A DNA stretch of 64,000 nt. It comes from Somniosus microcephalus (Eukaryota). Positions within the stretch are counted from its first letter, which is position 1. The number at the start of each line of letters is the position of its first letter. The translations under genes and the position numbers were made by a program. The notes under the pieces were generated by a model that did not search any database, was not told where the DNA came from, and worked only from the letters and a program-made list of their open reading frames with translations. Shown one piece after another: positions 33,548 through 34,046 of this stretch. The stretch covers positions 22,382,001 to 22,446,000 of the forward strand of contig CM126234.1 in the NCBI GenBank assembly GCA_052327205.1, written 5' to 3'.

Positions 33548-33629
33548 GTACCTTTTATTTGTGTGGCTTAATTTTCTGGGCTTTTTCTCCCCTCACTTCG
33601 ATTGGATCTTCACAAAGTAAAGGGCAAGG
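33548..33629 (+). other. scn8a: Poison exon homologous to SCN8A exon 18N (82 nt, in-frame stop)
   Basis: tttgtag|GTACC...GTAAAGGGCAAGG|gtaagg. Phase-0 reading VPFICVA* with TAA at 33569-33571. Lies about 300 bp upstream of 18A, and both ends resemble mammalian 18N as I recall it. Confidence 0.85.
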
Positions 33630-33923
33630 GTAAGGTTCTTATCATCCATTGGGCGTTTTCCTCCAACAGGTCCCCCTTTAGTTGTCTGTGTGTCTGTGAC
33701 CCTTCTTTTTCACTTTTCTTCCTTTTGTTCTATCTTATGCCTCTTCTCAACTACGCATTTCCTTCTAGGTCACTGGGAATTACTTCAGGCAAGGGAAGTA
33801 GGGAGCTGACCTCAGTTCATCGCAACGAGCTTGGGGCAATCTTACAATTAGTCCACTTTGTTTCATCAGTGATAGGGCCTTTGCTAACAGTATTGGGAAC
33901 TTTGCTTTTTTGTTTCTGTATAG

Positions 33924-34046
33924 GTTTCCTTAGTCAGCCTCGTAGCTAATGCCCTGGGCTACTCCGAACTAGGTGCCATTAAGTCTCTTAGGACACTAAG
34001 AGCTTTGAGACCTCTAAGAGCCTTGTCACGATTTGAAGGGATGAGG
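33924..34046 (+). CDS. scn8a: Nav exon 18A equivalent, DIII S3-S4 ([41 protein letters not shown])
   Basis: tgtatag|...|gtaaga; 123 bp; S4 R/K-x-x repeats. Not in the ORF track. Confidence 0.97.

Follow-up and report, generated by a model that had tools for sequence, protein, structure and literature searches.

Does a shark gene for the sodium channel Nav1.6 carry a poison exon of the 18N type upstream of exon 18A, and if so, how old is this splicing switch? The question arises from a short segment with a premature stop in a 64,000-nt stretch of the Somniosus microcephalus genome (GCA_052327205.1, CM126234.1:22,382,001-22,446,000, forward strand), hereafter called the window. In mammals, inclusion of the stop-containing 18N exon of SCN8A shuts off Nav1.6 in fetal and non-neuronal tissues. 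An 18N exon was reportedly described in pufferfish by Plummer in 1997. We asked whether the segment belongs to the same class, and which evidence supports a functional role.

The host gene and its paralogs

The initial annotation assigned the window to a probable shark scn8a, and the gene-specific exons bear this out. Human Nav1.6 is the best match both for the DII-III linker exon (254 versus 196 bits) and for the last exon (748 versus 671 bits). Annotated scn8a of rays and sharks shares 97% identity with this linker, and the chimaera gene 87%. The conserved exon-17 peptide ranks Nav1.5 first when queried alone, which weighs little beside the gene-specific exons. These comparisons support the identification of the gene as a chondrichthyan scn8a (Nav1.6). 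Its exons of 174, 123, 285 and 54 nt have the same lengths as in human, and the exon order is the same in human and mouse.

The other Nav1 genes of this genome are scn1/2-like (C4), scn5a (C5) and scn4a (C24). When the 18N-type segment was aligned locally to the 20 kb surrounding the S3-S4 exon in each gene, no similar element emerged and the scores stayed within the shuffled range; the scn5a stretch used covers only part of the introns of that gene, and the alignment of the exon alone to scn4a reached 46.0 versus a shuffled maximum of 46.5. A fifth, distant four-domain channel gene (C2:273521614-273625707; L006, L018, L023 and L030) shares 34-61% identity with the window exons, and we presume that it is possibly Nav2-like.

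Structure and splice sites of the candidate exon

The segment was located again exactly as it had first been noted. It is 82 nt long, is bounded by tttgtag/GTACC at its acceptor and GGCAAGG/gtaagg at its donor, reads VPFICVA followed by a stop in the incoming frame, and ends exactly 294 nt short of the exon that codes for DIII S3-S4. As in known 18N exons, the host is SCN8A, the position is between exon 17 and the DIII S3-S4 exon, and the element is a short AG/GT-bounded exon with a premature stop. It is single-copy in its own genome. The features of the locus are collected in Table 1.

Table 1. Features of the scn8a locus around the candidate exon, in window coordinates
Feature	Position	Strand	Description
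Upstream constitutive exon (exon 17 / CDS19)	25717..25890	+	174 nt, phase-0 end
Block at ~95% identity in four other organisms	33465..33900	+	exon plus intron towards 18A; contigs from ~33417
Possible longer form, acceptor 33473	33473..33629	+	157 nt, CLCI-stop, also poison exon; predicted
18N-type poison exon (candidate)	33548..33629	+	82 nt, VPFICVA-stop in incoming phase-0 frame
In-frame TAA	33569..33571	+	58 nt upstream of the exon's donor; six exon junctions downstream
Branch-point-like CTAAC (predicted)	33884..33888	+	40 nt upstream of 18A acceptor
Coding DIII S3-S4 exon (18A / CDS20)	33924..34046	+	123 nt, 41 aa
Four (T)GCATG Rbfox-type motifs (predicted)	34073..34573	+	+27, +52, +321 and +522 from 18A donor
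Downstream constitutive exon (exon 19 / CDS21)	43390..43674	+	285 nt

Both splice sites had been described as strong, which holds for one of them. When scored with an approximate frequency matrix based on textbook values, the donor at 33629 is the best of the 496 GT dinucleotides in its intron. The acceptor at 33548 ranks only 8th of 441 AG dinucleotides and is outscored by the acceptor at 33473 (6.0 versus 8.2). By the same approximate matrix, the two sites taken together form the 5th-ranked of 5660 AG-GT pairs in the intron. Chance could account for splice sites of this strength, but not for the homology of the segment.

Match to a sea turtle alternative exon

A total of 221 proteins from an scn8a-linker search and its clusters were inspected for the sequence following exon 17 (11 lacked the anchor); the main shark cluster is represented in this set by 15 of its 83 members. 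Two SCN8A models from the sea turtle Lepidochelys (P0444 and P0450) carry a 37-residue tail that starts with VP after exon 17, and no further tails of this type were present in 45 additional proteins. The last 13 residues of the tail correspond to exon 19 translated in a frame shifted by one base. We infer that in these models exon 17 is followed by an exon of about 71 nt, which leads directly into exon 19 with 18A left out. The position and length of this turtle exon point to 18N.

When the tail is compared with the window by tblastn, the top match is at 33558-33581 (6 of 8 residues identical, E = 0.038). A frameshift-aware score of the turtle peptide likewise peaks at the segment, with 41 versus 36 for the next site in 128 kb on both strands. 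This score was reached by 0 of 1000 shuffles locally and by 2 of 100 over the whole intron. In the shark segment, VP at the acceptor is read in frame 0, FVWLN-x-x-G in frame 1, and K-G-x-G, which spans the donor, in frame 2. Because VP falls at the acceptor and K-G-x-G spans the donor, both ends of the exon are in register with the turtle exon. Homology to a tetrapod alternative exon is thus seen indirectly, through the peptide, and by this route the orthology of 33548-33629 to 18N is well supported. The proposal that the switch predates the divergence of cartilaginous and bony fish gains from the same match, which supports an age for 18N at or before that split.

Length, frame and stop position across lineages

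The initial annotation had also held that exon length and stop position vary between lineages, and the comparison agrees. The shark exon measures 82 nt and that of the turtle an inferred ~71 nt, versus 70 nt in human and 68 nt in mouse according to the supplement of PMC8383430, which also gives gaps between 18N and 18A of 377 nt (human) and 354 nt (mouse). The shark stop is codon 8 of the exon, which leaves a tail of 7 amino acids. The human 18N product is given as ~1282 amino acids in PMC6115389, and human exon 17 ends at residue 1273, which places the human stop at about codon 10 with a tail of about 9 amino acids. The turtle exon has no internal stop, holds the reading register of 18A, and truncates the protein through a frameshift in exon 19. 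In at least two of four related organisms, a 2-nt insertion is present inside the exon.

Such varying ways of ending the protein, combined with persistent exon ends, fit selection for truncation rather than for a peptide.

Predicted control and annotated skipping of exon 18A

Within 600 nt downstream of the 18A donor there are four GCATG motifs, three of which are TGCATG. By comparison, 0-2 such motifs follow each of 12 further donors (the boundary is unverified for one), and the enrichment after 18A has a Poisson p of 0.007 versus the window rate. Rbfox control in mammals has been placed downstream of 18A (PMC3809569, PMC13011093), and at the level of sequence motifs the downstream (U)GCAUG elements are present in the shark as well. 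Steric exclusion between 18N and 18A was considered as a means of making the two exons mutually exclusive, and appears unlikely given the 294-nt gap and the branch-like site at -40.

In the scn1/2-like gene (L002:1650-1655), the donor of the DIII S3-S4 exon is likewise followed by a TGCATG at +27, where scn8a has its first motif. The presence of this motif in a gene that yielded no 18N-like exon in the 20 kb aligned may mean that regulation of the DIII S3-S4 exon by Rbfox is older.

Among the chondrichthyan scn8a models listed, 8 of 33, from 5 species, are annotated as skipping 18A, and none of the 33 includes the poison exon. The absence of inclusion is expected for an NMD target, yet it gives no support. 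Excluded from the 33 are five scn8a models of Callorhinchus in which exon 17 is followed by another segment that does not resemble 18N.

Conservation and sequencing-run contigs

Four of 24 sequencing runs were compared with positions 25600-33900; the runs had been chosen for containing the region and are presumed to be RNA. The joint table of the runs consists mostly of repeats among its best 15 of 214 rows. Each of the four runs yields one unspliced contig over the conserved block, and exon 17 is uncovered. Three of these contigs cross both splice sites of the segment and one crosses the acceptor only. No spliced junctions into or out of 33548-33629 were present in the four contigs, in which exon 17 is uncovered. 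The unspliced contigs at 33417-33900 could represent pre-mRNA, a retained intron or DNA. Conservation does not single out the exon, because the intron towards 18A is conserved as well.

Proposed switch and alternative explanations

We conclude that the segment is very probably a working 18N ortholog in shark scn8a, and by analogy to mammals it likely silences the channel outside mature neurons. On the mammalian model, exon 17 would be joined to 18N or directly to exon 19 in cells where Rbfox is scarce, such as non-neuronal or immature cells. Inclusion of 18N would place the codon-8 stop ahead of six junctions, and the message would be degraded or would encode a two-domain stub. Mature neurons would instead include 18A, promoted by Rbfox bound downstream of it, and make the full channel, again as expected from mammals. 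The 18N exon probably arose as a copy of 18A that has since decayed, and it would be retained for its splice signals and its lethality and not for its peptide. As a general rule, NMD acts on messages whose stop lies well upstream of later exon junctions. The shark stop, located 58 nt before the exon's own donor and with six junctions downstream, agrees with this rule. A publication on NMD of 18N (PMC3401437) has been retracted and is not relied on here.

Another explanation is that the segment is an 18N homolog that sharks no longer splice, and that it persists within a conserved stretch of intron that controls 18A, with silencing achieved by skipping of 18A or by intron retention. The extent of conservation over 33465-33900, beyond the exon, is in keeping with this idea, as are the unspliced state of all four contigs and the balance of 18A-skipping (8 of 33) over inclusion (0 of 33) among the models listed. 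We nonetheless consider it unlikely, since no GT in the intron outscores the donor and the exon ends are in register with an exon that is spliced in turtle models. Moreover, protein sets under-represent NMD targets and the runs may not be RNA. A chance AG-GT pseudo-exon without function is harder still to accept. The splice-site pair of the segment is outscored by four of the 5660 AG-GT pairs of its intron and the E-value of the turtle tblastn match, 0.038, is modest, but the segment is the top match in 128 kb, lies at the expected position with ends in register, was matched by 0 of 1000 local shuffles and is conserved in four other organisms. The turtle-peptide test has already largely refuted this explanation, and we regard it as extremely improbable.

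The exon might instead be included to produce a stable two-domain truncated Nav1.6 with a function of its own. A band of ~150 kDa in HeLa cells was ascribed to the 18N product in PMC6115389, and the truncation point is similar in every lineage. This proposal is very unlikely to be correct, because the C-terminal peptide differs in frame and length (7 residues in shark, ~9 in human and 37 in turtle) and six junctions follow the stop.

Relation to known poison and duplicated exons

The closest known system is the SCN8A 18N/18A switch of human and mouse (PMC8383430, PMC3809569, PMC13011093). The shark locus shares with it the gene, the position, a stop within the exon, a spacing of a few hundred nucleotides, the lengths of the flanking exons, (U)GCAUG motifs downstream of 18A and a form that skips the exon. 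The two differ in exon length (82 nt versus 70 and 68 nt), in the gap to 18A (294 nt versus 377 and 354 nt) and in stop position (codon 8 versus about codon 10 in human). Poison exon 20N of SCN1A (PMC7790302) also lies in the domain III region of a neuronal Nav gene and serves as a developmental off-switch of the NMD type. It is a 64-nt cassette that acts by frameshift into the next exon, whereas the shark element carries its own stop. The turtle SCN8A exon acts more like 20N. The Nav exons 5N/5A, which encode DI S3-S4 (bioRxiv 10.1101/2025.08.16.670673), also represent a tandem S3-S4 exon duplication that is old in vertebrates and under Rbfox control, but there both copies code and the domain is I rather than III.

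The mechanism is already known, and the present case extends the element to sharks and rays. If the 18N assignment is correct, this splicing off-switch for Nav1.6 dates to the last common ancestor of jawed vertebrates. An exon that shifts in length and frame while its ends stay in place would indicate that splice signals and truncation are what is selected. This pattern helps to single out the conserved bases of the exon for variant interpretation or antisense design. A literature search, with subscription journals, figures and bioRxiv supplements beyond its reach, returned no reports on 18N in cartilaginous fish or on the scn5a exon pair described below.

Origin of 18N and a DIII exon pair in scn5a

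The DNA of the shark exon has weak similarity to S3-S4 coding exons, with scores reached in 12-149 of 1000 shuffles (25 of 1000 in the test for origin by duplication). Read in the turtle frame, the exon begins with 12 residues that are in register with 18A-type exons at V1, L3, N9 and G12 (p = 0.0035). This supports a model in which 18N is a decayed duplicate of the S3-S4 exon.

The less expected result concerns scn5a. In the same genome, this gene has two intact, in-frame DIII S3-S4 exons of 123 nt (C5:26506598-26506720, L005, and 26508259-26508381, L003). The tandem copies are 1538 nt apart, are identical at 30 of 41 residues and are both AG/GT-bounded, and around the pair there is a single exon 17 and a single exon 19. 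The upstream copy is present in annotated proteins of sharks, rays and chimaera (85-98%) and of lungfish (83%), and also in models from sturgeon, gar, salamander, frog, turtle, alligator and snake. Isoforms with one copy or the other are annotated in Pristiophorus, Carcharodon, Stegostoma, Chiloscyllium and Protopterus, and some models carry both copies. The pair could serve as a natural experiment on a voltage sensor that exists in two versions in the cardiac channel, and is a closer parallel to 5N/5A than is 18N.

The relationship between 18N and the upstream scn5a copy leans towards independent duplication, judging from profile scores. The turtle peptide scores 11.1 against a profile of downstream or 18A-type exons versus 1.3 against the scn5a upstream profile (difference p = 0.004), and the corresponding values for the shark segment are 6.7 and 1.0. 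A shared origin is not favoured because 18N resembles the downstream type more, although later divergence in scn5a could also account for this difference. A Cys at codon 5, common to 18N and the scn5a upstream copy, was considered as a sign of shared origin and set aside, as it arises from the shifted frame of the shark exon in the turtle register.

A unifying scenario would place the duplication of the DIII S3-S4 exon in the jawed-vertebrate Nav1 ancestor. In this account, scn5a kept both copies as a swappable sensor (intact from chimaera to alligator), scn8a converted the upstream copy into 18N, and scn1/2 and scn4a lost it. We find this scenario rather doubtful. If true, 18N would be a former coding exon with an intact living counterpart in the heart channel.

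Other features of the window

The intron at 53190-55049, which precedes the DIII-IV linker exon, has AT and AC ends and an ATAAGT donor. These features match the AT-AC intron known from Nav genes. The intron upstream of 18N contains a 219-bp inverted repeat (26395-26613 and 27655-27873, 99.5% identical) around a repeat-derived ORF fragment, which together are probably a mobile element.
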